A DNA stretch of 64,000 nucleotides from Bacteroidota bacterium (GTDB lineage: Bacteria > Bacteroidota > Bacteroidia > Palsa-965). A program made the position numbers and the translations under genes. A model generated the notes under the pieces. The model was given only the letters and a program-made list of their open reading frames with translations, made no database searches and was not told the DNA's origin. The stretch lies in the NCBI GenBank assembly GCA_006218065.1, contig VBWE01000002.1, forward strand, positions 10,154 through 74,153, in the 5' to 3' direction. This document shows positions 6,180 to 49,080 of this stretch, piece after piece. The stretch's first letter is position 1, and the number at the start of each line of letters is the position of its first letter.

Positions 6180-6974
6180 TCACAACCGCGACAATTTTTT
6201 TTTCCAGGAATACAAACCGAATTTCCGGCCGTGATACGCACAATCGCGGAAAGCGACAATCTGCGTTCCTGTTCCGTACGATTCGATCAGTAAATCTTCG
6301 TCATCGATTTCCCCTTTCACGCCGCGGTCTTCGTAAAGCACGCTCACCTGTCCGCCGAAGTGAATCACCGTGCCGCGTTCCGGCGGCCCGCTGAGCGTAT
6401 CGAGATATTTTTTGATACCCATCGGTCCGCAGTAGGGAACTTTAAATCCTTCCCGGCGTTTCCCGTAAATAGCCAGCTCCGCACAATCGGCGCCAGCGCG
6501 TATGTCCGCCTGGTGACCTGCGTGCGGAACCTGCATGGGCGGAAGAATGAACGGCGTGTGCAGCAGCTCGGTGAGATAGCCCACGTAATCGTCGCGCTCG
6601 CGGACCACGATCTGCACGCAGTTCTGTTTAAAAAACAGGTGCGGCGGTTTGACCGAGCGAATCGTATCAGGTAGCGAAACCGGGACGCTGCCGGTGGACC
6701 AGGCGAAATAATACGTGCCGGGAAACGCAGCATGAAAAGAAAGATCATCGGTATAAAACGGTTTTTGCGCCGCGCGATACGTAACCGGAACGAGGGAAAG
6801 CGTGCCCTGGCGCAGGTTTTCATATTCGCCCGGAACGGCTTCGTATGCGACGACATTACCATAAATCCGCAGCCGTAAGGTATCGCCGGTGCGAAGCAGG
6901 TGCGTGGCGGTGCTGTCGCCGGCGGAAAGCAGCGTCGAAAAAAATAACGCAAAAAACAAAAACCCGTTTTTCAT
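6180..6974 (-). CDS. secreted hypothetical protein
   Basis: The 264-aa product has an N-terminal signal peptide MKNGFLFFALFFSTLLSAG. Its 3' end overlaps the next gene by 4 bp. Confidence 0.6.
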   Translation of the reverse strand: MKNGFLFFALFFSTLLSAGDSTATHLLRTGDTLRLRIYGNVVAYEAVPGEYENLRQGTLSLVPVTYRAAQKPFYTDDLSFHAAFPGTYYFAWSTGSVPVSLPDTIRSVKPPHLFFKQNCVQIVVRERDDYVGYLTELLHTPFILPPMQVPHAGHQADIRAGADCAELAIYGKRREGFKVPYCGPMGIKKYLDTLSGPPERGTVIHFGGQVSVLYEDRGVKGEIDDEDLLIESYGTGTQIVAFRDCAYHGRKFGLYSWKKKLSRL

Positions 6975-8320
6975 TGGCGTTTCTCTGCTGTTGCGCCGAG
7001 GATATAAATTTCAGAAATGCAGACGTCGTCGTATTTGCTGCCGGGGTAAATTTCTTTCACCGTCAGCCGCAGTTTTTTCGCGCAGAGCGAAGCGTCGCCC
7101 ATGTCGCAGGCAATGGTACACGAAGCCCAGGGGATTTTGGCATTCACCGGTTTCCAGGCACTGTCGCAATCGGAATAGGATTCAAAACTCTCGCGGTTTG
7201 AAATGTATGCTTCCGGATCGCAGGTCCCCGATGCGTCCATTTGCTTCACCCGGTTGTTCTTGTAAAAAAGTTCTTCGCTGCGCGCGAACCCGTTTACGAT
7301 CAGCACGGCAAAAACCTGCATCGTGCTGTCGAACTCAATGTCGATAAACTGTCCCGCGCCATCTTCTCCCGCACCGTCGGCCCAGCAGGTGTTCAGGTTA
7401 CCGTCAGTCATTTTTTCCGCGACATAATTATCGCCGAGCGAAGAACTTGTCCTGATGGATTTGATATGCTTGTTGATATTTTGATTTCCCGTAAGGTACC
7501 GGCCGAATTTCTGAAAGGCGCTGTTGTCGTACATAATCCGTAAACGGCCGAGGTCGCCGAGTTTTACGTTGACGCCGTCGTATTCGAATATGCCGGTGAT
7601 TTTTTCACGCAGCGTCATACCGCCGAACGCGATGGATCCACCGTTATAAACGACTTGTTGCGCATCGATCTGCATATTGAATTTTCCGGCAACACCTTTT
7701 CCCCAATAGCTGGCGGGCGTAAAATCGTAAACCATGGTCCGGTCGGAATAATACGCGAAAAAACTTTTGGAAGTGGCCCAGTCTTCAAAACCGTTCCGTG
7801 TTTTAAACTGCACGCGGATGGTCGCTTTTTTACCGGCGGGAATTTTCAGCTTCGCCACGTGCCAGCGCCTCCAGGTGGAGAAAAGTTCCAGTTGTTTGTT
7901 ACCCCCGGTGTCTTTTGAAAGAATGGAGTCGGGGCGCTGCCGGTTGGGCTCGTTGTAAAATGTTGTGCTTACGGGAACATCATTGAAGAACAATTCGAAA
8001 TCGTCGCCTTTCAGCGAATCCGACCAGCGTCCTTCCATCCATTCGATCTGGCGTACATCAACCGGGAAGCCGTACGTGACCTCCTGGTCGGTTTTTTGTT
8101 CGTTGAGCAGCGTGTACGTTACATACACAAAACCGCTGTCGCCCGCCAGGCGGATGCGGAGATCCTCGCTGAGTAATCTGATCTGCGCCTGCCGCAGCGG
8201 AACGATATTCCCCGTGGCGTAAAATTCCGACCCGTCCACCGGCCCGCCATTCGCGCGCAGCGTTGCGTGAAAAAAGAAGGACAGGAGAAAAACGGAAAAG
8301 AAGCGGCGGTTCATTTTCAT
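6971..8320 (-). CDS. secreted protein with C-terminal F5/8 type C (discoidin/galactose-binding-like) domain
   Basis: The start is placed at MKMNRRFFSVFLLSFFFHATLRA (signal peptide). The C-terminal region ..TDGNLNTCWADGAGEDGAGQFIDIEF.. resembles discoidin-like domains. Confidence 0.55.
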   Translation of the reverse strand: MKMNRRFFSVFLLSFFFHATLRANGGPVDGSEFYATGNIVPLRQAQIRLLSEDLRIRLAGDSGFVYVTYTLLNEQKTDQEVTYGFPVDVRQIEWMEGRWSDSLKGDDFELFFNDVPVSTTFYNEPNRQRPDSILSKDTGGNKQLELFSTWRRWHVAKLKIPAGKKATIRVQFKTRNGFEDWATSKSFFAYYSDRTMVYDFTPASYWGKGVAGKFNMQIDAQQVVYNGGSIAFGGMTLREKITGIFEYDGVNVKLGDLGRLRIMYDNSAFQKFGRYLTGNQNINKHIKSIRTSSSLGDNYVAEKMTDGNLNTCWADGAGEDGAGQFIDIEFDSTMQVFAVLIVNGFARSEELFYKNNRVKQMDASGTCDPEAYISNRESFESYSDCDSAWKPVNAKIPWASCTIACDMGDASLCAKKLRLTVKEIYPGSKYDDVCISEIYILGATAEKRQ

Positions 8321-8375
8321 GGAGCGGATTAATAGAAGTAAATGTCGAGAATTATCCGACACCTTTCAATTTGAA

Positions 8376-8466
8376 AATGGACCGATTTGAAAATTGAGAA
8401 AATGCCCTTGCGCGTTGAGTTGCGCGCATCTTCAAATTTTCAAATCGAGTCATTTTCAAATTAACC
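8376..8466. repeat. imperfect palindromic repeat element copy A (AT-rich arms gatttgaaaat../..attttcaaatc around GC-rich hairpin tgcgcgttgagttgcgcgca)
   Basis: The arms cgatttgaaaattgagaaaatgc and gcatcttcaaattttcaaatcg are reverse complements over 12+ nt. A second copy in inverted orientation lies at 9165-9245. Confidence 0.7.
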
Positions 8467-9061: not shown

Positions 9062-9086
9062 GTCTTTGTCTGTTTGGTTAACAGCA

Positions 9087-9094
9087 CAAAGATA
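9087..9094 (-). promoter_or_regulatory. candidate -7 element (TAtcTTTG on minus strand) for yceI
   Basis: rc of cacaaagata gives a TAnnTTTG match ~27 nt upstream of the yceI ATG. Confidence 0.3.
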
Positions 9095-9164
9095 TAAATA
9101 AATGTTACAACATCTAATGTTGTTGCTTTAATTGTTTTATATTGATAACCACTGTATTGTAATT

Positions 9165-9245
9165 TGAAGATTCCCCGATTTGAAAATGGGGAAGATGCAC
9201 GCAGATCAAAGCGCATAGGCATTTTCTCAATTTTCAAAGGCAATG
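9165..9245. repeat. imperfect palindromic repeat element copy B (inverted relative to copy A)
   Basis: The rc of this segment (gcctttgaaaattgagaaaatgcctatgcgctttgatctgcgtgcatcttccccattttcaaatcgggg) aligns base-for-base with copy A, with a few substitutions. Confidence 0.7.
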
Positions 9246-9267
9246 ATTGCCGAGTTGGGACAAAGGG
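9229..9267. repeat. left inverted repeat bounding the AT-rich insertion
   Basis: aattttcaaaggcaatgattgccgagttgggacaaaggg matches rc of 14257-14296 (ccaatttgaaaaggcaatgattgctgtaatgggacaaagg) at ~36 of 41 positions. Confidence 0.6.
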
Positions 9268-9362
9268 TAAACTGAAATTTTAATCAAGCCCTGTGCTATT
9301 AGCGTCTTATTATTGGCACTTAGAATAATTGAACGAAATAACGAAAAGTATGCCGAATTGAG

Positions 9363-9869
9363 CTATTGCGGGGCTTTAATTAAGGTGCAAATTTGAGCGT
9401 ATTTTTTTCTAATACTAATCTTTATAGATGGCCCGGGAGGCTTTTCCATTAACACCCCGTTTTCAAATATTTTTACGACCGTATGAGGATACATACATTC
9501 CTCCGGATCATGAACCACTTTTAACTCATATTTGTTAGCTGGGATAGAGGTGTTTTGAATTACAATGTTTTCTATTTCTTTTATGGAAATGCGTACGATC
9601 CCATAATGAAAATAGTGGGTATTGGAAGTAGAACTAAATAATACATCCTCTGGGGTCAAGCAAAAATCTTGGCGATTGCAAGACATATTATCAGTGCTAA
9701 ATATGCTCTGGTCTATATCTCCTTTATCCGAAATAGAAAGTTTTCCGTTTTGTATTTTAGGAAAGCGGCGATAAAGCCCCTCGTCAATAGAAAAGATTTG
9801 CTGGTCTTGTCGATTGTCTTTGTGCAGATATTCTGGTATGCCCAGTTCCGTGCAAAAATTATTCGCCAT
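9363..9869 (-). CDS. hypothetical protein (gene 3 of three-gene operon)
   Basis: 168 aa with no recognisable motif. Its start overlaps the stop of the upstream gene (9859-9869). AT-rich. Confidence 0.55.
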   Translation of the reverse strand: MANNFCTELGIPEYLHKDNRQDQQIFSIDEGLYRRFPKIQNGKLSISDKGDIDQSIFSTDNMSCNRQDFCLTPEDVLFSSTSNTHYFHYGIVRISIKEIENIVIQNTSIPANKYELKVVHDPEECMYPHTVVKIFENGVLMEKPPGPSIKISIRKKYAQICTLIKAPQ

Positions 9870-10374
9870 GGGGTATTATGTCAAGCTTTTCCTTTAAACG
9901 ATTAAAAGTCAAGTCTTCACATTCAACAGTTTCCCCGCCAATATCTTTTAGCCAACCAATTTGCCCTTCATTATCAATCTCTATAGCAGAGTAAATATCT
10001 TTATATTTCATTTCAAACAAAAGACCACCATCGGGCGAGACGCTTATTTCATGCTCTATGCCCATGCTATTCAATGTATCTAAAACTGTATTTGCGATAG
10101 ATATGGAAATCTTGCTTGGAACATCTTTAATTCCTCGTTCCGATGCCCCGTCGGATTGAATTGCCTGCAAAAACAGCCTATGTTTATAAACAGTCTGCTT
10201 ATTTTTTGTTTGCTCGGATATTGCTTTAATGAGTTTATAACACTCTTCATTTTTTATTATATTTCCATAATGGGATGTTGCCGAAGATGGTTCTTTTAAA
10301 AAGCGCACATCTTCTATGACTTCAACTTTTTTTGCCGAGGCCGGGGGTATGTATGCGGGCGTACTTAAAGCCAT
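9859..10374 (-). CDS. hypothetical protein (gene 2 of three-gene operon)
   Basis: 171 aa with no recognisable motif. A 2-bp gap separates it from the upstream gene and it overlaps the downstream gene. Confidence 0.55.
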   Translation of the reverse strand: MALSTPAYIPPASAKKVEVIEDVRFLKEPSSATSHYGNIIKNEECYKLIKAISEQTKNKQTVYKHRLFLQAIQSDGASERGIKDVPSKISISIANTVLDTLNSMGIEHEISVSPDGGLLFEMKYKDIYSAIEIDNEGQIGWLKDIGGETVECEDLTFNRLKEKLDIIPHGE

Positions 10375-10376
10375 TT

Positions 10377-10724
10377 TTATTCGCCTTTAGATTCTGATTT
10401 CGATTCCGATCTTATTTTTTCAATTGCGTTGATATTGGCTTGAAGCCAATCTATCAACGTCTTTGCGGTATTAACATCCATCAAAAGACCAACTTGGACT
10501 TCTCTAACAGAGCCGTCTCTTTCATCTCTTTCGACTTCGGTAGAATGCGGAATTTGCGAAGATATTTCATTTATAATTTTTCGAGGGATAACGACTCTAT
10601 CAGTAAAAACATTCATGTCTATAAGGCCCTGAATGGTAACACCGCCAAAAGCCCCCGTTACTATAACGGTTTTATAGTCATTGTTTTTTATATAATGAAA
10701 GGAATGTTTGATTCTATCTTCCAT
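10377..10724 (-). CDS. hypothetical protein (gene 1 of three-gene operon)
   Basis: 115 aa with a glycine-rich motif ..KTVIVTGAFGGVTIQGLIDMN... It is divergent from the transposase gene. Confidence 0.55.
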   Translation of the reverse strand: MEDRIKHSFHYIKNNDYKTVIVTGAFGGVTIQGLIDMNVFTDRVVIPRKIINEISSQIPHSTEVERDERDGSVREVQVGLLMDVNTAKTLIDWLQANINAIEKIRSESKSESKGE

Positions 10725-10946
10725 GTTGCAAAGGTAATATAACTTGTTTGAGTTGGATAGCCAAAAATAGCTAATATTAAATACAATGGCTGTTGTGTTT
10801 AGTTAAGGTTGGAGCAAATTTTGCTGTTTTTTCATAAAAAAGTTACGCGTTTTTGCCTTGAAACGCAACAAAATCAACGCTTTCAGCGTTTAAGTAGTAT
10901 AACTTTTCGATACAATACCGAACCGACTTTAGCCCTGATTTTGCTT

Positions 10947-11852
10947 ATGAACCTGATTGACTTCTCCCGCTATTTTTCTACCGAAGAAATCTGCAAAAAA
11001 CATCTTGAACAAATGCGCTGGCCGAATGGCGTAACGTGTCCTTTTTGCGCAAGCGAACGTATCTACGTAACCAAGCGCGGGTATAAATGCGCCGACAAAA
11101 ACTGTTACAAGAAGTTCAGCGTAACAGTTGGTACGTACTTACAGGGAACGAAAATCCCGCTTGTAAAATGGTTCATGGCAATCTACATTTCAACGGCGCA
11201 CAAGAAAGGAATCAGTTCGCACCAGCTTGCAAAAGACATCGGGATAACTCAAAAATGGGCTTGGTTTATGTTACAACGCATTCGCGGCATTATGACCGAA
11301 AAGAACGCGGTTAAACTCAAGGGTGTAATTCAGGCCGATGAAACGCTGATAGGCGGTAAGGAGAAGAATAAACACGCTGTAAAACGCAATCCCAAAGCAT
11401 ACGGACGCGGGGGAAACAAAACAGTCGTGCTTGGTGTTCGTGATTTTGGCGGCGAAGTAAAAGCGTGGGTTATTCCCGACGCAAGCAGGCAGTATATCAC
11501 ACCCCTGATTCAGCAGAATGTAAAACAGGGTTCGTTTCTGTTTACCGATACATGGGGCGGCTACAATGATTTAAGTAAGTCGTTCGTCCATTTCAAAATC
11601 AATCACATCGAAGGGCAATACGTGCGCGGGTTTGTACATACGAATGGTATTGAAAATTTCTGGTCGCAGATGAAGCGGGGAATCAACGGCATTTATCATC
11701 AGGTTAGCCCGAAGCATTTGCACAGGTACGTTAGCGAATATTCGTTTCGGTACAACACGCGCAAGATCGGCGATTCGCTCCGGGTAGATTTTGCATTCGC
11801 ACAGTGCGCGGGTCGTCTGAAATGGAACGACCTGATAGCGGATAAAGTGTAA
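10947..11852 (+). CDS. IS1595-family transposase (N-terminal zinc-ribbon + DDE domain)
   Basis: The product from the internal ATG 10947 shows ..WPNGVTCPFCAS..YKCADKNCYKKFSVTVGT.. (transposase zinc ribbon). The ..VIQADETLIGG.. and ..FLFTDTWGGYNDL..HFKINH.. segments are ISXO2/IS1595 DDE-like. Confidence 0.85.
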   Translation: MNLIDFSRYFSTEEICKKHLEQMRWPNGVTCPFCASERIYVTKRGYKCADKNCYKKFSVTVGTYLQGTKIPLVKWFMAIYISTAHKKGISSHQLAKDIGITQKWAWFMLQRIRGIMTEKNAVKLKGVIQADETLIGGKEKNKHAVKRNPKAYGRGGNKTVVLGVRDFGGEVKAWVIPDASRQYITPLIQQNVKQGSFLFTDTWGGYNDLSKSFVHFKINHIEGQYVRGFVHTNGIENFWSQMKRGINGIYHQVSPKHLHRYVSEYSFRYNTRKIGDSLRVDFAFAQCAGRLKWNDLIADKV

Positions 11853-11860
11853 CTTTGAAC

Positions 11861-12007
11861 ATGGCCAAGAAGAAACCATCCAAGAAAAAAAAGAAGGTCT
11901 CCAAGTATCACGAGAAGATCAAGATTGACGGGTCGTTCGACGAAGTGCTAAAAGCAATGATTAATACCCCAAAACAGAAGGCATCCAAAAAAGAGAAAAA
12001 CAAATAA
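11861..12007 (+). CDS. small lysine-rich ORF (49 aa) immediately downstream of transposase
   Basis: MAKKKPSKKKKKVSKYHEKIKIDGSFDEVLKAMINTPKQKASKKEKNK. It is below the ORF-track size cut-off and its coding status is uncertain. Confidence 0.25.
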   Translation: MAKKKPSKKKKKVSKYHEKIKIDGSFDEVLKAMINTPKQKASKKEKNK

Positions 12008-12013
12008 AAGGCC

Positions 12014-12214
12014 CTAATAGGAAATAGGTCCAATAACAAATATTTCGTCATGCTCAAGAGCGTCACTATAAATTATGATGCTATGTTTCATGACTTCACT
12101 AAGGGTATCTTCGCAAGCAGAACCCTCATAATAACTCGACTCTCTTGAGGTTGTGTTATTGATAACGTAACAAGGAGAGAGAATTATACTTTCAGTATAT
12201 GTTGCTCTGTTCAT
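12014..12214 (-). CDS. small hypothetical protein downstream of SDH protease
   Basis: A 66-aa ORF on the same strand as the protease, 16 bp downstream of it. Confidence 0.3.
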   Translation of the reverse strand: MNRATYTESIILSPCYVINNTTSRESSYYEGSACEDTLSEVMKHSIIIYSDALEHDEIFVIGPISY

Positions 12215-12230
12215 TGCCTTACAAAGTTAA

Positions 12231-13265
12231 TTATTTTTTCGGTTCCGACAATATTTCGTGCCTCCAACCTTCAAAAGTCCTATTGTCTTGAATGCTGGTA
12301 TTTTGAATCGCAGCCCCTCCAGGTCCTTGAATACTTATTGGCTGTTTGTTATATGATCCTTCCGTGGTATATACATGACAACCATTGACAAGGCTTTCTA
12401 CGATAACCCGCCTATATGAATAATTAAGGTCATTCGTTGCTGCCATAAGTATTTTAGGTTCAAGAGGCACAGTCAAAAGCATTTCTGTTTCAATGCTTTT
12501 GTATATGCTGTTTATTATTGAATACAGATTATCGTCTGGCTTTTCAATAGGCAACCCCAGCTCCTCTTTTGCTTCTTTGCGATAAATCGTGTAATCATGG
12601 CTACCGGATTCGCTACACAAGAAGTTGATAATTGGTGTTTGTTTATCTTCTTCTGTAACCCCCTGCTTTGTTAACAGCTTTTTAGCAAGCATTTGAATTT
12701 GGCTTCGTGTCCTATATACTTCACCCAAAGACATGGGATGAATCTTTTCGGACAAAGCAATATAAATATCAGCAAGCGCACGCGGGTCTGTGATTTTTAA
12801 TTCTTCCTTTGCCATTCCTAAATACGCGCTTACAACCTCAACGCTTACAGGAACACGAACCCTTTGGCCATTGTGTTCTATCAAGGGATTCATCATGCCA
12901 TTTGTGCTTGGATCTATTGGCCCCAACGTAGCCTGTTTGGTCATGATGATATTATTAGCGCCAAGGCACATTAATGTTCCGGCGCTATGACAATGTAATG
13001 GAACTATTATTTCCAGTTGCTTGCAGAAACTCCTCAATAAGTTTACTATGCTCCATGCCGCAATAGTATTTCCTCCCCTTGTGTAAAGAAATAGAGAGAT
13101 TTTTTCAGTGTCGCCGATTTTATCCAAGTGCTCCGTAAAATGCGGCAGCACTTCTTGACTAAGCTGTGTTTCAAGCCCACGCCGATCACCTGTAACGTAA
13201 ACCAAGAGCTTGGACTTTCTTAGTTTCTCAAGCTCTGCGTACAATTTTATTCTTTCTTTGAACAT
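12231..13265 (-). CDS. SDH-family Clp-fold serine proteinase (SppA/ClpP-like)
   Basis: The ..LFLYTRGGNTIAAWSIVNLL.. and ..HCHSAGTLMCLGANNIIM.. segments resemble the PF01972 serine dehydrogenase proteinase family. Confidence 0.6.
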   Translation of the reverse strand: MFKERIKLYAELEKLRKSKLLVYVTGDRRGLETQLSQEVLPHFTEHLDKIGDTEKISLFLYTRGGNTIAAWSIVNLLRSFCKQLEIIVPLHCHSAGTLMCLGANNIIMTKQATLGPIDPSTNGMMNPLIEHNGQRVRVPVSVEVVSAYLGMAKEELKITDPRALADIYIALSEKIHPMSLGEVYRTRSQIQMLAKKLLTKQGVTEEDKQTPIINFLCSESGSHDYTIYRKEAKEELGLPIEKPDDNLYSIINSIYKSIETEMLLTVPLEPKILMAATNDLNYSYRRVIVESLVNGCHVYTTEGSYNKQPISIQGPGGAAIQNTSIQDNRTFEGWRHEILSEPKK

Positions 13266-13372
13266 ACGGGGGAGGTCTTCAAGCAGACAATTAATGGGTT
13301 TTTTACAAGTATTTTCAAAGTCCGTTGATAACTATTTTTCAACTAATTGAAAATCAAGATAATTCATTCGAA

Positions 13373-13603
13373 TCACATCCCCTTCACCAATTCCGAAACC
13401 GTCACATTCAGCGCCTTCGCCAACTTAATCATGCTGGAAAGTTTTATGTCTGCGCCCCGCTCCCATTGGTTAATCTGAACGCGACCGAATCCGTGATCGT
13501 AAGCAAATATCTCTTGGCTCGTATAGCCAGCTTTCTTACGTAGCTCCTTTACCCTTGCTCCGAAGGTTTCCAAATCACCTTTCTTTTTGGCCTGCTTTTT
13601 CAT
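13373..13603 (-). CDS. XRE-family helix-turn-helix transcriptional regulator
   Basis: ..FGARVKELRKKAGYTSQEIFAYDHGFGRVQINQWERGADIKLSSMIKLAKALNVTVSELV is an HTH_3 pattern. The start is taken at the internal Met (MKKQAKKK). Confidence 0.7.
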   Translation of the reverse strand: MKKQAKKKGDLETFGARVKELRKKAGYTSQEIFAYDHGFGRVQINQWERGADIKLSSMIKLAKALNVTVSELVKGM

Positions 13604-13681
13604 GTATGCAAGGGAAGAAATACCATAATTCTTTACAACGTCATGCAATATGACATATTACAATAGTCTTTTTTAGTATGT

Positions 13682-14140
13682 TTGCCCGAAAACGGCACTA
13701 TGAAAATCATTCCAAGACGCGACATTCATAAGCTATTCCCGGTAGGCTTGAAGGACTGGCTGAAATCGAAAGACTGCCACATGAGAAAGAATTACGTGCA
13801 GGCTATTTCAGAGGGACGTTTCAGCAAGTGGGGTTATCTTCGGTTACTGGAAGCGTACCCGGAATATCAACACTGGTTTCAGCACGAAGGGTTCCGGTTG
13901 GTTACTTCGCCTTTACACCGAAAGAAATACAAGTTCCTGATCTGCCCGGTAGGGAGTACCGCGCTACCGGAAACGATTAAGCAGGGAATGAAAGAGCAGG
14001 GGATGCGCTCGGTACATGAACTGCTGCTTACATACGACTACCTGCAAATGCGTATGTACGAAATCCTGCATAACAGTGATTGGAAAGATTTCATTCGTGC
14101 GCTGCATCATTACAGATGCTACGACATGTTAGAGGTATAG
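13682..14140 (+). CDS. hypothetical protein divergent from XRE regulator
   Basis: 152-aa ORF, AT-rich, with no recognisable domain. Confidence 0.45.
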   Translation: MPENGTMKIIPRRDIHKLFPVGLKDWLKSKDCHMRKNYVQAISEGRFSKWGYLRLLEAYPEYQHWFQHEGFRLVTSPLHRKKYKFLICPVGSTALPETIKQGMKEQGMRSVHELLLTYDYLQMRMYEILHNSDWKDFIRALHHYRCYDMLEV

Positions 14141-14256
14141 ACTTTACCCCGAAGCGCACACGGGGAAAGTTGTGCGTTAAAAATGCAATCTGGTATATGA
14201 CGGGAAAGGGGCCATGCTATTCGCGTACTTCATAGAAGCCCCTTTCTTTATTAATA

Positions 14257-14296
14257 CCTTTGTCCCATTACAGCAATCATTGCCTTTTCAAATTGG
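14257..14296. repeat. right inverted repeat bounding the AT-rich insertion
   Basis: See the left inverted repeat at 9229-9267. Confidence 0.6.
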
Positions 14297-16250: not shown

Positions 16251-19200
16251 ATGAAGAAGCAGATCTACTCTTTTGCCATTCTTTCATTATTTGTAACCGG
16301 CAGCGTCAACGCCCAGAACTGGAAGGCCCCGATGGCCGATCCGAACGTATCGTTTTACGATATCAAGGCGGATTTTTACCAGGACTGGGGCGCAAAAGAG
16401 CAGCAGCTTTTCCAGGCACGGCAGGACCAGGCTATGGCGCAGGGCAAGTTCGGCAACATGAACCAGCGCGGCACCCCGATGCCGGATATGAAAGGCGGGT
16501 ACAAACAATTCAAACGCTGGGAATCGTATATGGAGCCCCGCGTTTATCCTTCCGGCGATTTGACATTACCCTCGCATAATTTCGAAAACTTCCTCGCCTA
16601 CATGGCGCAGAACCAGGAAGCGCGTTCACAGTACTATGCCACCTACGGCGGAAACCCGATCAACCTGGGCAATACCACCAGCCAGCTCAACAGCCCGCAG
16701 CCGCCCTCCGTTATGAGTAATATCTGGGGACTCGTCGGTCCGAGCGGTCCGCCCACAAACGGGGGCGCCGGTCGTATCAACCGCGTTGTCATTGATCCAA
16801 CAAACAACAATACGCTTTACGCCTGCGCACCTGCCGGGGGATTGTGGAAATCAACCAACGCCGGAACCACATGGAGCATTCTCGCCAGTACGGATGCGCT
16901 CAATTCCATCGGCTGTACCGACCTCGCGATTGATCCTACGAATACACAGATCATGTACCTCGCCACGGGCGATGGTGACGCCGGCGATACATACAGCATC
17001 GGTGTAATGAAATCTACCGACGGCGGAACAACCTGGGCTGCCACCGGACTCGCCTGGACTACGAACCAGGGCCGTACGATCGGGCGCCTGCTGATCAACC
17101 CGAGTAATACGCAGATTGTCATGGCGTTTACCAGCAACGGTATTTACCGCACCACGACCGGCGGAACCGGCGCCTGGACCCAGGTACAGAACACGGATCC
17201 TTTCCGTGATGCGGAATACAAACCGGGTGATCCGAATACGGTGTATGCCACAGGAACGGAATTCTGGAAATCGACCAACGGCGGTGCAGCCTGGACGCAG
17301 ATCACCTCGGGACTTCCCACATCTGCAAACGTTGACCGTCTTTCCGTTGCGGTAACAGCAGCAAATACCGCGTACGTGTATGTTCTTGCCGGAAGCGCTG
17401 CAAACAATGGTTTTTACGGGTTATACCGCTCCACCGACAGCGGCACAACATTTACCACGCGCTCTACAACACCGAACGTCATGGGCTGGGCCAGCGCAGG
17501 AAATGATACCGGCGGACAAAGCTGGTATGACCATGGTCTTGGCGTTTCTCCGACCAACCAGGATGTCGTGGTTGTGGGAGGTGTAAATGTATGGCGTTCG
17601 ACAAACGGCGGAACGGGCTGGACCCTGCACGCACATTGGACAGGCTCCGGAGCGCCGTATGTACATGCCGATATTCATGATATTACTTTCCAGCCGGGAA
17701 GCTCCACAACATATTATATCAGCAACGACGGCGGTGTCGCCAAAACGACAAACACCGGAACAAACTGGACCGATGTGAGCGCCAACATGGCCATTGCACA
17801 ACCTTACCGTATTGGCCTTTCCGCATCAACAGCAAACCTGTGGCTTACCGGTCACCAGGATAACGGAACGAACCGCTACAACGGAACCTATGCCGAAGTA
17901 ATGGGCGGCGACGGTATGGATTGTTTTATCGATCGTACGAACAATAACAACATGTACGGCGAACAATACAACGGCGCATTCAACCGCTCCACCAACGGTG
18001 GGACAACCTGGGCCGGCTACACGACCGGTCTTACGGGTACCGCCAACTGGGTTACTCCGTGGATACAGGATCCGACAAATGCATTGTATCTCTGGGCCGG
18101 TTATACCAACGTGTTCCGCAGGAATACGAGTACCGGAAGCTGGACGCAGATGGGAACCATCACGGGAACCGGAACAATCATCGATGTTAAAGTCGCTCCT
18201 TCCAACGGTGCCGTTATTTATGCCGCACGCAGCAACCAGCTCTGGAAATCAACGAATACAGGCGGTACATGGACGAATATAACCGGAACGCTTCCTGTTG
18301 GAAGTGCGGCGATTACACGCATTGCCATCGATCCTTCGGATGCGAATAATGCCTGGGTGACTTTCTCCGGCTATTCCGCAGGCAATAAAGTATTTGTAAC
18401 AACCAACGGCGGGACAAGCTGGACCAGCGTTTCCACGGGCCTTCCCAACCTGCCGGTGAATTGTATTGTTTATACACCCGGATCCACAACAGACGCCATT
18501 TACGTAGGCTGTGATATTGGTGTTTATTACAAAGACAACAGCAGCGCAACCTGGCAGCCGTATTTCACCGGCCTTCCGAACGTACCTGTTTTCGACCTGG
18601 AAATTTATTCACCGACCAGCAAGGTGCGTGCAGCAACCTATGGCCGCAGCGTATGGGAAGTAGATATCTACAACCCGGGAACATTGCCGCCGATAGCCGC
18701 TTTCGCAGCAAGCTCGACAACAGTATGCTCCGGCTCACCGGTCAGCTTCACCGACCAGTCGAGTTTCACACCCACTTCCTGGAGCTGGACATTCCCCGGC
18801 GCGACGCCCGGAACATCCACAGCACAGAACCCGACCGGTATTGTATGGAACACGCCCGGAACATATACGGTAACACTTACTGCAACCAATGCAAACGGAA
18901 GCAGCAACGCAACCCAGGTGGTCACCGTAATGGGAACAGTGCTTCCGCCGCTCACGCAAGGATTTGAAGCAGTTACATTCCCGCCCACAAACTGGCTGAG
19001 CAACGACGTAAACGCTGACGGTGTTTTCTGGTCGCGCACAACGGCAGCAAGCGGGTTCGGAACAAGTACGGCCTGCATGAAGTTTGATAACTATAACAAC
19101 GACGTGGCCGGCGCAAGAGATGAAATTCTCACACCGCGTATGAACTATACCGGTTATACGGGTCTGCAGATGACCTTTGATGTTGCATACGCACGATATA

Positions 19201-22200
19201 GCGCAACATATTCCGATACGCTGGAGGTGCTCATTTCAAATAACTGCGGAACATATACACAACTCTATATTAAAGGCGGAACATTGCTGGCCACCGCAGC
19301 AGATCAAACCGCTACGGAATTTGTTCCCACCGCCGCCCAGTGGCGCACCGAAACAATCAACCTGAGCGCCTACAACGGAAGCGGAAGTCTCCAGGTTATT
19401 TTCCGGAACCGCGGCCGTTATGGTCAGTCGATCTACGTTGATAACGTAAACATCACCGGATCTCTTACCGGTCCGCCGCCAACTGCCTCATTCACGGCCA
19501 GCGCAACAACGGTTTGTGCAGGCACTGCGGTTAACTTCACGGATGCTTCTACAGGCTCTCCCACTTCCTGGAGCTGGGCATTCCCGAGCGGAACCCCGGC
19601 AACGGCAACTACACAAAACGTAACAGGAGTTGTCTGGAATACGGCAGGAACGTACACCGTTACGCTTACTGCAACCAACGCCAACGGCAGCAGCAACAGT
19701 ACGCAGGTCATTACGGTAAATGCAAGACCTACAGTAACTGCAACTGCCGGATCACCGACAATATGTTCGGGCAACAGCACCACGCTCACCGGTGGCGGCG
19801 CAAGTACGTACACCTGGAACCCGGGTTCGCTTAGCGGATCACCGGTTACGGTAACGCCGGGAGGAACTACCACGTATACCGCTACCGGAACGGCGGTGAA
19901 CGGCTGTACCAATACGCAGACGGTTATGGTTACGGTGAATACAACGCCGACAGTGAGCACGACCGCTTCAAGTACGACGATCTGTTCGGGCAGCAGCACC
20001 ACACTTACCGGCAGCGGTGCATCAACGTACCTGTGGATGCCCGGTTCACTTACGGGAACATCAGTAGTTGTATCACCGGCAATAACAACGACGTACACTG
20101 TAACCGGTACAGCAGCAAATGGATGTACCGCAACCAGCACACGTACTATAACGGTTAATACTACACCAACGGTAAATGCTACTGCAGGCAGTGTTACGAT
20201 TTGTACCGGCGGAAGCACCACGCTTACCGGCAGCGGCGCATCTACTTATTTGTGGATGCCGGGCTCATTAAGCGGAACGACTGTTTCCGTTACACCCGGT
20301 TCAACAACAACCTATACGGTAACCGGCACAGCAGCCAACGGCTGCACAGATACACAAACCGTAACTGTAACCGTAACCGGTACACCAACGGTAGTAGCCA
20401 CAGCGGGCAGCAGCACCATCTGTTCGGGCAGCAGCACCACACTTACCGGCAGCGGCGCATCGACATATAGCTGGATGCCGGGTTCGCTCAGCGGCACAAC
20501 CGTAACTGTATCACCAACATTGACCACTACGTACACCGTAACCGGAACAGCTCCCGGCGGATGTACCAATACGCAAACGGTTACCGTTACAGTGAACACC
20601 ACGCCGACAGTAACCACTTCCGCATCGAGCACAACGATTTGTTCGGGCAGCAGTACAACACTCACCGGCAGCGGCGCGTCAACGTATGCGTGGATGCCCG
20701 GATCGCTGAGTGGCACATCCGTAGTAGTATCGCCGGCAACGACAACAACGTACACTGTAACCGGTACAGCGGCTAACGGCTGCACAGCCACCAGTACGAG
20801 AACGATCACGGTCAATACCTCGCCGACCGTTACGGCATCAGCAGGCAGCGGTACGATCTGTACTGGTGCAAGTACTACGCTTACCGGCAGCGGCGCATCA
20901 ACCTATGCGTGGATGCCCGGCTCATTAAGCGGAACTACAGTTTCCATAACTCCGGCAACAACCACAACCTATACGGTAACCGGCACAGCAGCCAACGGTT
21001 GTACAAACACACAAACCGTTAATGTAACTGTAACCAGTACGCCAACAGTGGTAGCTACTGCCAGCAGCCCGACCATCTGTATCGGCGGCAGCACCACGCT
21101 CACCGGCAGCGGCGCGTCAACCTATGCGTGGATGCCCGGATCGCTGAGCGGAACAACAGTAACCGTCTCACCGACATCAACAACAACGTACACGGTAACT
21201 GGTACGGCTCCCGGCGGCTGTTCAAATACGCAGACCGTTACAGTAACGGTAACTGGTACACCGACCGTAACAGCAACAGCCAGCAGCCCGACCATCTGCA
21301 CAGGGGGCAGCACCACGCTCACCGGCAGCGGCGCAACTACATACACCTGGATGCCTGGCTCATTGAGCGGCACAGCTGTAACCGTCTCACCGACATCAAC
21401 AACAACCTACACGGTAACGGGAACGGTGCCTGGCGGATGCACGAATACACAAACTGTAACTGTAACTGTAACCGGTTCACCGACAGTTACAGCAACAGCC
21501 GGCAGCGGTTCTGTCTGCAACGGCAGCAGTACCACGCTTACCGGCAGCGGCGCAACTACATATTCCTGGATGCCGGGTTCACTGAGCGGCACAACCGTAA
21601 CTGTATCACCGACTTCAACGACAACCTACACGGTAACCGGAACAGCTCCGGGCGGATGCACAAACACGCAGACAGTCACGGTTACGGTAAATTCACTTCC
21701 GACAGTGACAACGTCAGCGTCTGCCACGACAATTTGTGCCGGAAACTCGGTAACAATTACCAGCTCGGGCGCTTCAAGCTATTTGTGGATGCCCGGCTCC
21801 ATGACAGGTTCTTCTGTTGTCGTTACACCGTCAAGCACCACCACGTATACGGTTACCGGAACGGCTGTAAACGGCTGCACAAATACCGCGACAAGAACGA
21901 TCAACGTTGTTGCCTTGCCCAACGTAACGGCAACTGCTTCCAGCAGTACAATCTGCACAGGAGGAAGCACCACACTTACAGCATCCGGGGCAAACACATA
22001 TCTCTGGAATCCCGGTTCGATGAGTGGGGCCGTGGTAACCGTATCGCCAACCGCAACCACAACCTACACGGTAACCGGTTCGAACGGTACCTGCATCAAT
22101 ACATTTACCATTACGGTAACGGTGACCAGCACACCGACAGTTACGGCAACCGCTTCCAGCCCGAGTATCTGCGGCAGCGGCAGCGCAACGCTTACAGCAG

Positions 22201-23078
22201 GCGGCGCCACCACGTACGTTTGGATGCCGGGTTCGTTAAGCGGTTCATCGGTGATCGTCTCGCCATCATCCACAACGACATACACGGTAACGGGAACCGT
22301 TCCCGGTGGCTGCTCGAATACAGAAACCATCACGATAACGGTAGCTTCCCCACCCACGGTCGGCGCTACCGCATCGAATGCCACAATCTGCGATGGCGAC
22401 AGCACAACACTCACCGCTTCGGGCGCGAGCACGTACAACTGGATGCCGGGCTCGCTGAGCGGAACAAGCGTAACAGTAACGCCGGCATTCTCAACTGCAT
22501 ATACTGTAACGGGGACCGACATAAACGGCTGCACAAACACATTCACTGTTACGGTGAACGTAAACCCGCTGCCCACGGTATCGCTCACTTTGCCGCAGAC
22601 CACGATCTGTCTTGCTGATGGACCGACACTGCTGACCGGCGAATCTCCCTCGGGAGGAACGTTCTCCGGCACAGGTGTTTCGGGTGGCGTATTCGATCCT
22701 GCAGCAGCGGGACTCGGAACACACGCGATCACGTACAGCTACACCGATGGCAACAACTGTTCGAATACGGCGATGCAGAATATCACGGTTGATATCTGCA
22801 CAGGCGTAATACCGGTTACTGATCCTGGCCTTGGAATTAACGTTGTTCCGAACCCGAATAACGGAACCTTCCAGCTCAACATTCACGTGGGCGTAACGGA
22901 CGACTACCGGATCGAGATCATCAACACGCTCGGTCAGCGAGTGTATCTTGAGGAACTGAAAGGATTCAGCGGAAACGCCAGCCGCAACCTCGATGTGAAA
23001 CAGTTCGGAACAGGTATGTACCTTGTCCGCCTGCACTCGGTCGATAAAGAACTCATCGTGAAGATGTCCGTTCAGTAA
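16251..23078 (+). CDS. giant T9SS-secreted cell-surface protein with three parts
   Basis: The 2275-aa product has a signal peptide. The N-terminal beta-propeller (BNR/Asp-box-like) region carries many S/T-x-N/D-G-G-T-W motifs (WKSTNAGTTW, STDGGTTW, STNGGTGW). Two PKD-like domains follow (..FTDQSSFTPTSWSWTFPGATPGT..). The C-terminal Ig-like region is 13 tandem ~73-aa repeats. The C-terminus (..NPNNGTFQLNIH..YRIEIINTLGQRVY..GMYLVRLHS..) is a T9SS type A sorting domain. Confidence 0.9.
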   Translation: MKKQIYSFAILSLFVTGSVNAQNWKAPMADPNVSFYDIKADFYQDWGAKEQQLFQARQDQAMAQGKFGNMNQRGTPMPDMKGGYKQFKRWESYMEPRVYPSGDLTLPSHNFENFLAYMAQNQEARSQYYATYGGNPINLGNTTSQLNSPQPPSVMSNIWGLVGPSGPPTNGGAGRINRVVIDPTNNNTLYACAPAGGLWKSTNAGTTWSILASTDALNSIGCTDLAIDPTNTQIMYLATGDGDAGDTYSIGVMKSTDGGTTWAATGLAWTTNQGRTIGRLLINPSNTQIVMAFTSNGIYRTTTGGTGAWTQVQNTDPFRDAEYKPGDPNTVYATGTEFWKSTNGGAAWTQITSGLPTSANVDRLSVAVTAANTAYVYVLAGSAANNGFYGLYRSTDSGTTFTTRSTTPNVMGWASAGNDTGGQSWYDHGLGVSPTNQDVVVVGGVNVWRSTNGGTGWTLHAHWTGSGAPYVHADIHDITFQPGSSTTYYISNDGGVAKTTNTGTNWTDVSANMAIAQPYRIGLSASTANLWLTGHQDNGTNRYNGTYAEVMGGDGMDCFIDRTNNNNMYGEQYNGAFNRSTNGGTTWAGYTTGLTGTANWVTPWIQDPTNALYLWAGYTNVFRRNTSTGSWTQMGTITGTGTIIDVKVAPSNGAVIYAARSNQLWKSTNTGGTWTNITGTLPVGSAAITRIAIDPSDANNAWVTFSGYSAGNKVFVTTNGGTSWTSVSTGLPNLPVNCIVYTPGSTTDAIYVGCDIGVYYKDNSSATWQPYFTGLPNVPVFDLEIYSPTSKVRAATYGRSVWEVDIYNPGTLPPIAAFAASSTTVCSGSPVSFTDQSSFTPTSWSWTFPGATPGTSTAQNPTGIVWNTPGTYTVTLTATNANGSSNATQVVTVMGTVLPPLTQGFEAVTFPPTNWLSNDVNADGVFWSRTTAASGFGTSTACMKFDNYNNDVAGARDEILTPRMNYTGYTGLQMTFDVAYARYSATYSDTLEVLISNNCGTYTQLYIKGGTLLATAADQTATEFVPTAAQWRTETINLSAYNGSGSLQVIFRNRGRYGQSIYVDNVNITGSLTGPPPTASFTASATTVCAGTAVNFTDASTGSPTSWSWAFPSGTPATATTQNVTGVVWNTAGTYTVTLTATNANGSSNSTQVITVNARPTVTATAGSPTICSGNSTTLTGGGASTYTWNPGSLSGSPVTVTPGGTTTYTATGTAVNGCTNTQTVMVTVNTTPTVSTTASSTTICSGSSTTLTGSGASTYLWMPGSLTGTSVVVSPAITTTYTVTGTAANGCTATSTRTITVNTTPTVNATAGSVTICTGGSTTLTGSGASTYLWMPGSLSGTTVSVTPGSTTTYTVTGTAANGCTDTQTVTVTVTGTPTVVATAGSSTICSGSSTTLTGSGASTYSWMPGSLSGTTVTVSPTLTTTYTVTGTAPGGCTNTQTVTVTVNTTPTVTTSASSTTICSGSSTTLTGSGASTYAWMPGSLSGTSVVVSPATTTTYTVTGTAANGCTATSTRTITVNTSPTVTASAGSGTICTGASTTLTGSGASTYAWMPGSLSGTTVSITPATTTTYTVTGTAANGCTNTQTVNVTVTSTPTVVATASSPTICIGGSTTLTGSGASTYAWMPGSLSGTTVTVSPTSTTTYTVTGTAPGGCSNTQTVTVTVTGTPTVTATASSPTICTGGSTTLTGSGATTYTWMPGSLSGTAVTVSPTSTTTYTVTGTVPGGCTNTQTVTVTVTGSPTVTATAGSGSVCNGSSTTLTGSGATTYSWMPGSLSGTTVTVSPTSTTTYTVTGTAPGGCTNTQTVTVTVNSLPTVTTSASATTICAGNSVTITSSGASSYLWMPGSMTGSSVVVTPSSTTTYTVTGTAVNGCTNTATRTINVVALPNVTATASSSTICTGGSTTLTASGANTYLWNPGSMSGAVVTVSPTATTTYTVTGSNGTCINTFTITVTVTSTPTVTATASSPSICGSGSATLTAGGATTYVWMPGSLSGSSVIVSPSSTTTYTVTGTVPGGCSNTETITITVASPPTVGATASNATICDGDSTTLTASGASTYNWMPGSLSGTSVTVTPAFSTAYTVTGTDINGCTNTFTVTVNVNPLPTVSLTLPQTTICLADGPTLLTGESPSGGTFSGTGVSGGVFDPAAAGLGTHAITYSYTDGNNCSNTAMQNITVDICTGVIPVTDPGLGINVVPNPNNGTFQLNIHVGVTDDYRIEIINTLGQRVYLEELKGFSGNASRNLDVKQFGTGMYLVRLHSVDKELIVKMSVQ
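19724..22571. repeat. 13 tandem 219-bp repeats inside the adhesin CDS
   Basis: Units such as TPTVTATASSPTICTGGSTTLTGSGASTYAWMPGSLSGTTVTVSPTSTTTYTVTGTAPGGCTNTQTVTVTVT repeat with high nucleotide identity. A 14th degenerate unit follows. Confidence 0.9.
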
Positions 23079-42926: not shown

Positions 42927-44384
42927 TTAATCGGTGATATCGGGGTCTTTATCGGGCGTACTCTTCTTTCGGAGTTCTTTGAGCTCTGCTTCTCGCTTCT
43001 CTTTGTTAAAGACAGTAAAGTTCTGTGCGGCGTGCGCCAATATGCGCTTGTCGGCATAGTGCTTCTTCATGATTTTTGTGTTCGCATGGCCGGTGATTGC
43101 CTGCGCGTTTTCCATGCCGAGTTCGCCGGAGAGGTGGCTGATATTTGTTCTGCGCAGGCACCCAAACGTCAGTTCCTTGCCGGTTTGTAATTGCTCGTAG
43201 TAGTGAGAAAACGAACGAGATAGAAAGCTCGTTATGGTATCCCGCTGCATTGTTTCATCGGGAGCAATGAGGTAGGCGTCCTTGCCTTTGTGTTCTTCTT
43301 CCCCGAGTCGAGTGAGCAGGTCGCGAAGCTCGCTTGTCATGGGAGCATAGTTATACTTCCAGTTCTCCTCAGAGAGTCCTTTTTGTCGATTGACTTTATA
43401 ATCGGGAACTTGCAGATGGAGCGGAACTCCATTTTTGTCATAAACAACATCACTCCACTTCATGCGGGCGACTTCTTCGCGTCGCCTGCCGGAATAGACA
43501 CCAAGCTCAAGCGCATCTTTAAACCATGGTTTATAGAGATTCTTACGTTTGCCGTTTAAGAGAGTCCGCCAGCCGAGTTCGGGCTTTTGAACGATTTCGA
43601 GGAGGCGCATAAATTCATCCTCGTCGATTGTTTCTATGTTTTCATTGACTGCCTGTCGGGTAACTGTCTCAAACGGGTTGCCGATCAAGTAGCCCTGACG
43701 GGCAAGGTGTTTGTAGAAGCTCGTGAGAATCGACATTGCCCGGTTATATGAGCGAGGGCCCTGTTTTAAGTCCTCTTGCAGATACTTGTGGAACTTGCCA
43801 ATCATAGTATCGTTGATCTGGTCAACACGGAGGCTCTCGATGTCATAACCGCTCTTTTTGAGAGATGCTGCGAAGTACCGAAACATGCGCTCAACCTGTT
43901 CAATATGCTCTTTGGTTCGTTCTTTTTGCCGATGCTCAGGAACATTCTCGTTATTGAGAAAGCCGATGTATTCGGACATGAGCTCAAGCAGGTTGTACGT
44001 TTTCTCTGGTGTCTGTTCTGTATTTGGGAACACAGGACGAACAAGAGGCTCGATGGGAGCGACTGACACAAGCGGTACGGGTGCCGTTTTCTCTATTTCT
44101 GGCTTTCCCGCTTCTTTAATCTCTTTTTGAAAGTCGAGGGCTTGTTTTACAGCCTCGTCGTACTCTCGCGTTTCAAGAATCTTTGTTTTTCTCTCATTCT
44201 TTGTGCCTGGAACATGCACAATGACCTTGTATCTCTGTTTGTCGCCATACGCGCAGGTAGAGAGCGACTTGCCTGATTGTTTACACTTCCCTTCAACGAG
44301 GGTGCCGCATCCATAGCAGTATATTTTCAGGCCGGGAATCTTTTTCTTTGGCGGTATATGGAGCGGCTTCTCATCCATGCTCAT
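42927..44384 (-). CDS. int: tyrosine-type site-specific integrase
   Basis: The C-terminal catalytic region is ..LRRTNISHLSGELGMENAQAITGHANTKIMKKHYAD.. (R, HxxR, Y). It is tRNA-adjacent. Confidence 0.9.
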   Translation of the reverse strand: MSMDEKPLHIPPKKKIPGLKIYCYGCGTLVEGKCKQSGKSLSTCAYGDKQRYKVIVHVPGTKNERKTKILETREYDEAVKQALDFQKEIKEAGKPEIEKTAPVPLVSVAPIEPLVRPVFPNTEQTPEKTYNLLELMSEYIGFLNNENVPEHRQKERTKEHIEQVERMFRYFAASLKKSGYDIESLRVDQINDTMIGKFHKYLQEDLKQGPRSYNRAMSILTSFYKHLARQGYLIGNPFETVTRQAVNENIETIDEDEFMRLLEIVQKPELGWRTLLNGKRKNLYKPWFKDALELGVYSGRRREEVARMKWSDVVYDKNGVPLHLQVPDYKVNRQKGLSEENWKYNYAPMTSELRDLLTRLGEEEHKGKDAYLIAPDETMQRDTITSFLSRSFSHYYEQLQTGKELTFGCLRRTNISHLSGELGMENAQAITGHANTKIMKKHYADKRILAHAAQNFTVFNKEKREAELKELRKKSTPDKDPDITD

Positions 44385-44386
44385 AA

Positions 44387-45765: not shown

Positions 45766-45849
45766 ATGCTGGTGTGATATAGTGTAGACAGAATGATAAT
45801 CCGCTACCGTCTGAATGTCAGATAGTAGCGGATTTTAATTGAAACAAAG

Positions 45850-46050: not shown

Positions 46051-46086
46051 GATTCGATCCCAAGCCCCGCTATAGCGGCGGCTTTT

Positions 46087-49067: not shown

Positions 49068-49080
49068 AAAAACGCAAAAC

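Follow-up and report, generated by a model that had tools for sequence, protein, structure and literature searches.

A probable IS1595-family transporter insertion sequence with two uncharacterised cargo cassettes between yceI and phoH of a Bacteroidota genome

Introduction

Transporter insertion sequences (tISs) are single insertion sequences (ISs) in which passenger genes lie together with the transposase gene inside one pair of terminal inverted repeats. Siguier, Gagnevin and Chandler (2009) named them when they defined the IS1595 family, according to the passages of PMC3129680 and PMC11891212 that cite this work, and the TnCentral preprint (10.1101/2021.05.26.445724) states that only the IS1595 and IS66 families include them. 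Two other kinds of mobile unit bear comparison with them. Tn7-like transposons carry variable cargo that consists mainly of defence and toxin-antitoxin systems (Benler et al., 2021; PMC8649781), and the sections of Furuta, Abe and Kobayashi (2010; PMC2853133) on which we draw describe restriction-modification units with imperfect inverted repeats, 8-bp duplications and an empty site in a relative. Here we analysed a 64,000-nucleotide stretch of Bacteroidota DNA (positions 10,154 to 74,153 of contig VBWE01000002.1, assembly GCA_006218065.1; hereafter the window), which comes from a metagenome contig deposited also as a Bacteroidota metagenome-assembled genome. Between its yceI and phoH genes, positions 9239-14284 are very probably occupied by a single IS1595-family tIS with about 4 kb of passengers inside one repeat pair.

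Target-site duplications in the IS1595 family are 8 bp long (ISfinder). The subgroups written with a '+' lie in a range of a few kilobases; ISNwi1+ is listed at 1.75-4.75 kb, and the window element is slightly beyond this. The ISfinder table gives the ISNwi1 subgroup ends of the form ggnnatTAT and a DDEK + ER4 signature. The clade described here may provisionally be placed in this subgroup, which by these criteria would suit it best.

Element boundaries and target-site duplication

The element and its ends were read from the sequence as follows, in window coordinates:

9239-14284 (5,046 bp), IS1595-family transporter IS, between yceI and phoH
9231-9238, target-site duplication, left copy, TTTTCAAA
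9239-9266, plus strand, left terminal inverted repeat, GGCAATGATTGCCGAGTTGGGACAAAGG
14257-14284, minus strand, right terminal inverted repeat, reverse complement GGCAATGATTGCTGTAATGGGACAAAGG
14285-14292, target-site duplication, right copy, TTTTCAAA

The terminal inverted repeats are 28 nt long, begin with GGCAATG and are imperfect (24/28 identical), and TTTTCAAA forms a perfect 8-bp direct repeat directly outside both of them. A consensus of the inner repeat with 23 specified bases is found at two sites only in the window, where 100 dinucleotide shuffles gave an expectation of 0. An unbiased scan for perfect 8-bp direct repeats combined with inverted repeats, applied family-wide as described below, returned the element exactly, as 9239-14284 with TTTTCAAA. 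Inside the element no other sequence comes close to the terminal repeats, the best having mismatches at 11 of 28 positions, and the transposase therefore has no nearer ends of its own. A candidate inner right end at 12211-12228 has only GGCAATGA in common with the repeat, lacks the TGGGACAA half and was judged a chance match.

These limits differ from those of the initial annotation, which had proposed an AT-rich element of about 5 kb bounded at 9229 and 14296 by terminal repeats of ~38-41 nt. Both the element and the repeat are real, while the ends lie further in, and the outer ~11 nt of the repeat consist of the duplication and host sequence. A repeat search pairs these longer arms as well (9228-9266 with 14257-14295, 39 nt, 85% complementarity). 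Since TTTTCAAA is almost self-complementary, it had been counted as part of the inverted repeat, and the target-site duplication had been missed for that reason; the search for one that had been recommended now finds a perfect 8-bp copy on both sides.

The G+C content of the element is 40.7% against 49.2% in the rest of the window, and falls below that of every other 5,046-bp segment there (minimum 41.7%). By tetranucleotide distance it is not the most atypical stretch (0.031, with a maximum of 0.050 elsewhere in the window), and G+C is uneven inside it, at 37% in the three-gene operon described below and 46-47% in the transposase gene and the right-end open reading frame (ORF). Given that other low-G+C stretches exist, the abrupt change in composition noted in the initial annotation is real yet not unique to the element. 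Those other stretches, at ~43500-46500, 47000-51000 and 58000-63500, have a G+C fraction of 0.39-0.44, as low as that of the element, and may be other foreign insertions.

Insertion site and empty sites in related genomes

The closest PhoH proteins were searched for and their contigs were compared with the window. In contig L092 (PhoH 92% and YceI 84% identical) phoH adjoins yceI across a spacer of 213 bp, and the gene order is that of the window, from a giant protein of the type IX secretion system (T9SS) through phoH, yceI and an NADase_transloc gene on to Polysacc_synt. In contig L187 (PhoH 91% identical) phoH is followed by a 204-bp spacer and then by yceI. After removal of the element and one copy of TTTTCAAA, the spacer of the window measures 210 bp. 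The empty site that had been expected in relatives is thus present in both genomes, on the basis of gene order and spacer size and not base by base: the yceI-proximal part of the spacer is alignable in the window, L092 and L187, and the phoH-proximal part is a different hairpin in each genome, for which reason the exact junction is not alignable. By these two empty sites the whole unit is one insertion and, because phoH and yceI are adjacent in related genomes, it is foreign to this lineage. L093, L094, L095 and L188-L190 have another gene order after phoH and are uninformative on this point. The pre-insertion junction would read ...GCATTTTCTCAATTTTCAAATTGGCTCAATTGAG... with a single copy of TTTTCAAA.

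The insertion lies in one of two host palindromic elements:

8368-8462, copy 1, intact, downstream of yceI; hairpin z-scores of -7.3 and -8.4 on the two strands
9160-9238, resuming at 14293 and ending at ~14312, copy 2, interrupted; found by repeat search and folding

The two copies, of about 95 nt and inverted relative to each other, bracket yceI and are the only ones in the 64-kb window; their arms carry TTTGAAAAT/ATTTTCAAA motifs. Palindromes containing tttgaaaat on either side of yceI had been pointed out before, and both the repeat search and the folding recovered them. The element entered an AT-rich stretch belonging to the 3' arm of the long hairpin that separates phoH from the start of yceI, and when the element is removed copy 2 forms a hairpin again (z -3.3), with the 3' arm spanning the insertion point. 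The initial annotation had offered as an alternative that the insertion split a pre-existing palindrome. This is correct in that the element landed in copy 2, which is compatible with a transposon; it does not extend to the inner 28 nt of the repeats, which are not palindrome sequence and have no counterpart in the intact copy at 8368-8462.

The transposase and an associated small ORF

Two genes on the plus strand form what we regard as the backbone of the element:

10947-11852, plus strand, IS1595-family DDE transposase, intact, 301 aa (PF12762, PF12760, NF033547)
11861-12007, plus strand, small Lys-rich ORF directly 3' of the transposase gene, kept in this IS lineage

The transposase matches PF12762 (7.6e-40, 136.8 bits, cutoff 27), the zinc ribbon PF12760 at its N-terminus (1.8e-11, 44.2 bits, cutoff 25.4) and NF033547 (2.5e-57, 194 bits, cutoff 75). 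In an alignment of 33 sequences (the window and 32 relatives) D131, D201, E236, E264 and R268 do not vary and K243 varies hardly at all, in agreement with a D-D-E-K pattern, with K seven residues past E, and an E-x3-R motif. Assigned by this pattern, D131/D201/E236 would be the catalytic triad, and the enzyme looks intact. Together with the D-D-E-K/R pattern of the transposase, the short imperfect repeats and the 8-bp duplication argue, on sequence grounds, for membership of the IS1595 family.

The initial annotation had described a transposon with terminal inverted repeats carrying passengers, a description borne out by the empty sites, by the duplication and by the presence of the same repeats elsewhere with different cargo; its type can be refined to a tIS, a single IS with passengers, as opposed to a composite or Tn3-like transposon. 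A composite transposon was rejected in view of the single transposase gene and of the repeat consensus, which occurs at the two outer ends only. Also rejected were a unit transposon (Tn3, Tn7, Tn402) and an integrase-borne island, there being no such transposase, resolvase or integrase domains among the ORFs of the element.

The small ORF behind the transposase gene has counterparts at the same position in L002 (6354-6485), L003 (3872-4066) and at least 15 other loci; sites were noted in L100, L104, L107, L115, L119, L121, L131, L164, L169 and L174. The predicted proteins have 43-85 aa, Lys/Arg-rich tails and a core of the form h-x-h-x-x-x-F-[DE]-[ED]-h-h-x-x-h-h. This small basic ORF appears to be an unannotated backbone gene of the IS and not cargo, and we know of no earlier description of such an ORF after an IS1595 transposase gene.

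Related elements

A homologue search with the transposase yielded ~6,400 sequences. The closest transposase (71% identical) is encoded in L002, where GGCAATGACTACCCAAGTGGGACAAGGG is located 550 bp upstream of the transposase gene, past an unrelated gene for a secreted protein; this locus shows the left end only, and its contig stops before the other end of the element. L049, with a transposase 54% identical, contains a complete element of 3,232 bp with the repeats GGCAATGACTACTCACATGGGACAAGCC and GGCAATAACTACCAACTTGGGACAAAAG and a perfect duplication, TTGTTTTA. Because repeats of the same type occur in L002 and L049 in unrelated contexts, the terminal repeats belong to the transposase lineage and not to the host, and the complete element and the left end together provide the case of the same repeats with different cargo that the initial annotation had called for. 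In a third relative (L003-L008) a type IIG restriction-modification gene adjoins the transposase gene.

The family-wide scan covered 84 loci, made up of 80 genome loci with 42-50%-identical transposases from many phyla and four others. An element was called where an identical pair of 8-mers surrounded the transposase gene and the adjacent 24 nt were inverted copies of each other at 18 or more of 24 positions, starting with GG. Elements were called in 50/84 loci, compared with 0/84 reversed-sequence controls. The smallest measures 2,014 bp and the largest 5,774 bp, the median being 3,375 bp (n=50), and no bare IS of ~1 kb was among them. With all 50 at 2.0 kb or more, each one must carry cargo, of at least ~1 kb; per called element the cargo amounts to 1-4.7 kb. 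The duplications are 84% A+T, in comparison with 56% in the flanks, which indicates that this IS clade prefers AT-rich targets. The repeat consensus of the clade is GGCAACTATATAC..., where the window element has GGCAATGAT, and the repeats of many relatives score 19-22/24, so that imperfect repeats are normal in the clade. A scan with the consensus GGCAATGANNNCNNNNNTGGGACAA gave 78 metagenome-contig and 5 viral-contig loci; L049 apart, these matched by chance and had no transposase in the vicinity.

Cargo turns over quickly in these elements. The two Streptococcus elements L143 and L171 are 86% identical in the half that holds the transposase gene and consist of unrelated DNA in the other half, and homologous type IIG restriction-modification cargo stands on one side of the transposase gene in L003 and on the other in L097. 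Taken together, the two cases show that cargo is exchanged in modules among sister elements.

We scanned 128 cargo ORFs from 49 called elements, leaving out that of the window, with Pfam and PADLOC. Restriction-modification genes were represented by N6_Mtase + Eco57I (type IIG), N6_N4 methylases, type I S subunits and a C5 methylase with Eco47II. The remaining matches included RhuM, which is the PADLOC candidate PDC-S05, as well as P63C, KilA-N, NYN, PIN, DUF433, DUF6036, HTH_3 with Peptidase_M78, DndB and RadC. By these domain assignments the cargo of sister elements is predominantly defence genes (including restriction-modification and candidate systems), addiction or toxin-antitoxin genes and phage-related genes. 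The cargo of the window is not common to the sister elements, as tblastn against all other element loci gave one weak SDH-like match only, in L118.

Cargo of the window element

Up to seven non-transposase cargo ORFs lie between the repeats, along with the small post-transposase ORF, which is the arrangement that defines a tIS:

9363-9869, minus strand, cargo gene C, 168 aa, predicted ADP-ribosyltransferase-fold protein, candidate toxin
9859-10374, minus strand, cargo gene B, 171 aa, fast-evolving, central in the cassette
10377-10724, minus strand, cargo gene A, 115 aa, predicted small beta-sheet and long-helix protein with a COMM-domain-like fold
12014-12214, minus strand, small ORF, 66 aa, after the protease gene
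12231-13265, minus strand, SDH-type ClpP-like serine protease, 344 aa (PF01972, PHROG 11747)
13373-13648, minus strand, XRE/HTH_3 regulator, 91 aa, in the same direction as the protease gene and upstream of it
13700-14140, plus strand, orphan ORF, 146 aa counted from ATG, pointing away from the HTH gene; annotated as a gene in L001

All of these cargo ORFs are intact, and the gene content listed in the initial annotation (intact IS1595 transposase, three-gene operon, SDH protease with XRE regulator, orphan ORFs) was found again in full. Searches in Pfam, NCBIfam, PHROGs and PADLOC returned nothing for the cargo beyond the HTH regulator and the SDH protease. PADLOC 2.0 matched the HTH gene only, as a 'control protein', and none of A, B, C, the protease, the small ORFs or the 146-aa ORF; the last of these likewise had no family match in Pfam, PHROGs or NCBIfam. 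Promoter and terminator counts did not exceed those of shuffled sequences, with the sigma-70 consensus as a poor model for Bacteroidota, and a scan with Rfam yielded a sub-threshold match to a miRNA family only.

Genes A, B and C form a tightly packed operon to the left of the transposase gene. Proteins A and C belong to families of more than 100 cluster representatives each, for which there is no Pfam model, and AlphaFold2 models built from the family alignments reached a pLDDT of 94.1 for A and 96.7 for C. The structural matches of the protein C model are nearly all of the ADP-ribosyltransferase fold, which is therefore the fold we predict for it. The best of them is the RNA 2'-phosphotransferase Tpt1/KptA, and the others are mostly toxins: Tse2, RES, DarT, Rhs C-terminal toxins and diphtheria-toxin-like proteins. 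Residues S62, D74, L76, H119 and H128 are invariant in the family, while the Arg of LYRRF and the Glu of HxPE occur often but are not invariant; S62, D74, H119 and H128 do not appear to correspond to any known catalytic signature, such as R-S-E, H-Y-E or the R-H-R-R of Tpt1. The family profile of protein C found nothing among PDB sequences. For protein B, 5.8 billion proteins (word-indexed) and 1.84 billion cluster representatives contained no homologue other than itself. The order A-B-C, with a divergent B, recurs in two phage contigs: L185 (3078-4507), beside UmuC/UmuD-like genes, and L186 (2959-4346), just past the tape-measure gene. The C-terminal ~60 aa of protein B weakly resemble the middle genes of these two cassettes. 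Since it is found in these phage contigs, the A-B-C cassette is, as far as gene order and homology indicate, a mobile module independent of the IS.

The second cassette is made up of the XRE regulator, the protease and the 66-aa ORF. The protease matches PHROG 11747 (1e-59) and PF01972 (53.2 bits, cutoff 31.3), the latter over profile positions 91-164 of 286 only, and its score against the NCBIfam equivalog NF047768 (69.7 bits) is under the cutoff of 250. Given this partial coverage and sub-cutoff score, it is a divergent member of the SDH-type ClpP-like proteases; PDB sequences gave no match. Homologues 42-57% identical are encoded at varying positions in nine prophage-like viral contigs (L176-L184): after the terminase gene in L182, between terminase and portal genes in L183, between a P2-type replication gene and the portal gene in L176, and beside a CI repressor and an integrase in L178. 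Such a pattern of positions is typical of accessory (moron) genes. A small ORF directly follows the protease gene in 4/9 of these contigs; those of L182 and L183 resemble the 66-aa ORF of the window, and those of L178 and L179 have the same position without evident sequence similarity to it. The XRE regulator matches PF01381 (2.6e-09) and the PADLOC 'control protein' (1.7e-08). Both cassettes of the window therefore recur as accessory genes in phage contigs.

Host genes around the element

Several features of the host DNA were noted beside these results. Upstream of yceI (window 9080-9120) there is a partly palindromic box, ATGTTACAACAT.TAATGT, which is kept in the window, L092 and L187 and may be an operator or promoter element. 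The 176-aa yceI is absent between phoH and the NADase_transloc gene in L093 and L094; yceI may itself be a variable cassette, or the palindromes may serve as its terminator and operator. Downstream of yceI (window 6971-8362) lies a gene whose product has an NADase_transloc domain (PF25302), as given in the precomputed annotation of L001. On the other side, phoH is adjoined by a gene for a secreted protein of 2,275 aa (window 16251-23078) with many near-identical Thr/Ser-rich Ig-like repeats of ~80 aa, which ends in a T9SS C-terminal sorting domain. Its counterparts vary, with 2,067 aa in L093, 2,600 aa in L095 and partial calls only in L092 and L188.

Discussion

A single tIS spanning 9239-14284 accounts for the perfect duplication, the lineage-specific repeats and the empty sites. 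Several observations weigh against it. The terminal repeats mismatch at 4/28 positions, and a second copy of the exact element was found nowhere in the collections searched, where the transposase forms a cluster of one member from one contig; with a single copy, recent or ongoing mobility is not supported. The exact junction CTCAATTTTCAAATTGGCTC could not be recovered in L092 or L187, whose intergenic DNA is too diverged at the insertion point. The palindrome arms contain ATTTTCAAAT motifs twice, similar to TTTTCAAA and in direct orientation. Finally, with regard to the cargo, the pairing of XRE regulator and protease is not kept in the nine prophage homologues, among which only L178 has a CI-type repressor upstream.

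With respect to function, the likeliest assignment of both cassettes is to toxin-antitoxin, addiction or anti-phage modules; it is made by analogy, on account of their varying positions in phages, the hypervariable component, the toxin-type fold and the cargo of sister elements. A possible but rather doubtful alternative is that the cargo has nothing to do with conflict and consists of ordinary regulatory or metabolic passengers, such as a protease-regulator pair controlling expression of the element and a Tpt1-like enzyme of RNA repair. The best structural match of protein C is indeed Tpt1/KptA, PADLOC has no match for the cargo save the HTH regulator, and regulators are documented as tIS passengers (PMC11891212). 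Most other structural matches of protein C are toxins, however, and both cassettes occupy varying accessory positions in phage genomes, the middle gene B evolves very fast and the sister elements carry mainly restriction-modification and toxin-antitoxin genes, all of which speaks for conflict modules.

We consider it unlikely, to a slightly greater degree, that the element is a dead tIS, a fixed and immobile relic whose cargo is now kept by the host. This would suit the single copy, with no identical one in any collection searched, the repeats with their four mismatches and the uneven G+C content, from 37% to 46-47%. Against a relic stand the full-length transposase ORF with all conserved catalytic positions present, the duplication that is still perfect and the intactness of every cargo ORF, and mismatched repeats are usual among the relatives.

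The two TTTTCAAA copies could also be motifs that were already present in the host palindrome, the spacer between them having been lost. The natural occurrence of the ATTTTCAAAT motif twice in the palindrome arms lends itself to this unlikely reading, to which the sole counter-argument is the family-wide rule of a perfect 8-bp duplication; because of that rule a true duplication is much more likely.

There is very little to recommend the view that an ordinary IS1595-family IS of ~1.1 kb sits in an older AT-rich island whose outer repeats are the halves of a split host palindrome. The insertion does lie inside a palindrome with TTTGAAAAT/ATTTTCAAA motifs in its arms, and the outermost ~11 nt of the repeat as first delimited are such sequence. 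The inner 28 nt, however, are missing from the intact palindrome and recur in L002 and L049, in unrelated surroundings, beside transposases of 54-71% identity, the nearest repeat-like sequence by the transposase gene has 11/28 mismatches, and 50 relatives have the same long-element layout. A mis-assembly joining foreign DNA between yceI and phoH is conceivable for a metagenome-assembled contig and can practically be dismissed, as these proteins also appear in records of ENA, NCBI and Logan, on contigs of 196 kb and 307 kb, and a chimera would not produce matched terminal repeats with a perfect 8-bp duplication.

For the single tIS that we favour, the known workings of DDE insertion sequences suggest that the transposase would bind both ends and move the whole segment from repeat to repeat. 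Insertion would occur at staggered cuts 8 bp apart, the repair of which would yield the TTTTCAAA duplication. The A-B-C and protease cassettes would hitch-hike on the IS and may help it to persist. We put forward only tentatively the broader idea that this IS1595 branch is a dedicated shuttle for conflict cassettes, as opposed to an IS with a passenger now and then, and that the two cassettes of the window are new abortive-infection or toxin-antitoxin systems shared with phages. It draws on the presence of cargo, mostly of conflict type, in all delimited members and of the small basic ORF in many. The consistent defence-type cargo, the conserved small basic ORF and the two uncharacterised cassettes shared with phages may go beyond an ordinary tIS, although this is not firmly established.

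The analysis settles the annotation of the locus with respect to its exact boundaries, duplication and pre-insertion state, and the AT-rich block is to be annotated as one mobile unit and not as a patchwork island. Since IS-finding tools are geared to elements of ~1 kb, transporter ISs seldom receive an annotation. Our results suggest that those of the IS1595 family are an under-appreciated small vehicle for defence and addiction genes, alongside Tn7-like transposons and prophages. Both cargo cassettes are uncharacterised and would be reasonable candidates for experimental screening.

Comparison with known systems

Among described systems, the element most closely resembles tISs of the ISNwi1+/ISPna2+ type, with which it shares an IS1595-type DDE transposase with an N-terminal zinc ribbon, imperfect repeats that start with GG, an 8-bp duplication and passengers inside the repeats. 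Unlike them, it has cargo on both sides of the transposase gene, cassettes that belong to no named family and the small basic ORF; its 5,046 bp are near the upper end of the sizes of the called relatives. It has the transposase family, the catalytic residues and the 8-bp duplication in common with simple ISs of the family as well (IS1595, IS1016, ISPna2, ISNwi1; ~0.7-1.2 kb). These carry the transposase gene only, whereas none of the 50 delimited relatives is smaller than 2.0 kb.

At the level of the cassette, A-B-C is similar to Xre-RES, ParST, DarTG and MbcTA in that a small protein predicted to have the ADP-ribosyltransferase fold is encoded in a compact operon with small partners on mobile DNA. 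It differs from these systems in having three genes and not two, in showing no sequence match to RES or DarT, in its partners, a COMM-like protein and an orphan in place of an Xre or macrodomain antitoxin, and in the invariant residues of protein C, which do not appear to match any known catalytic triad.

The restriction-modification units of Furuta, Abe and Kobayashi (2010) resemble the element in their repeats, duplications and empty sites. The two empty-site examples in the sections consulted are described without a transposase gene, whereas the window element has its own, and its cargo is not of the restriction-modification type. Like Tn7-like transposons, the element belongs to a transposon lineage with variable defence and toxin-antitoxin cargo; Tn7-like transposons differ in their multi-protein TnsABCD machinery, their site-specific targeting and their far larger size.

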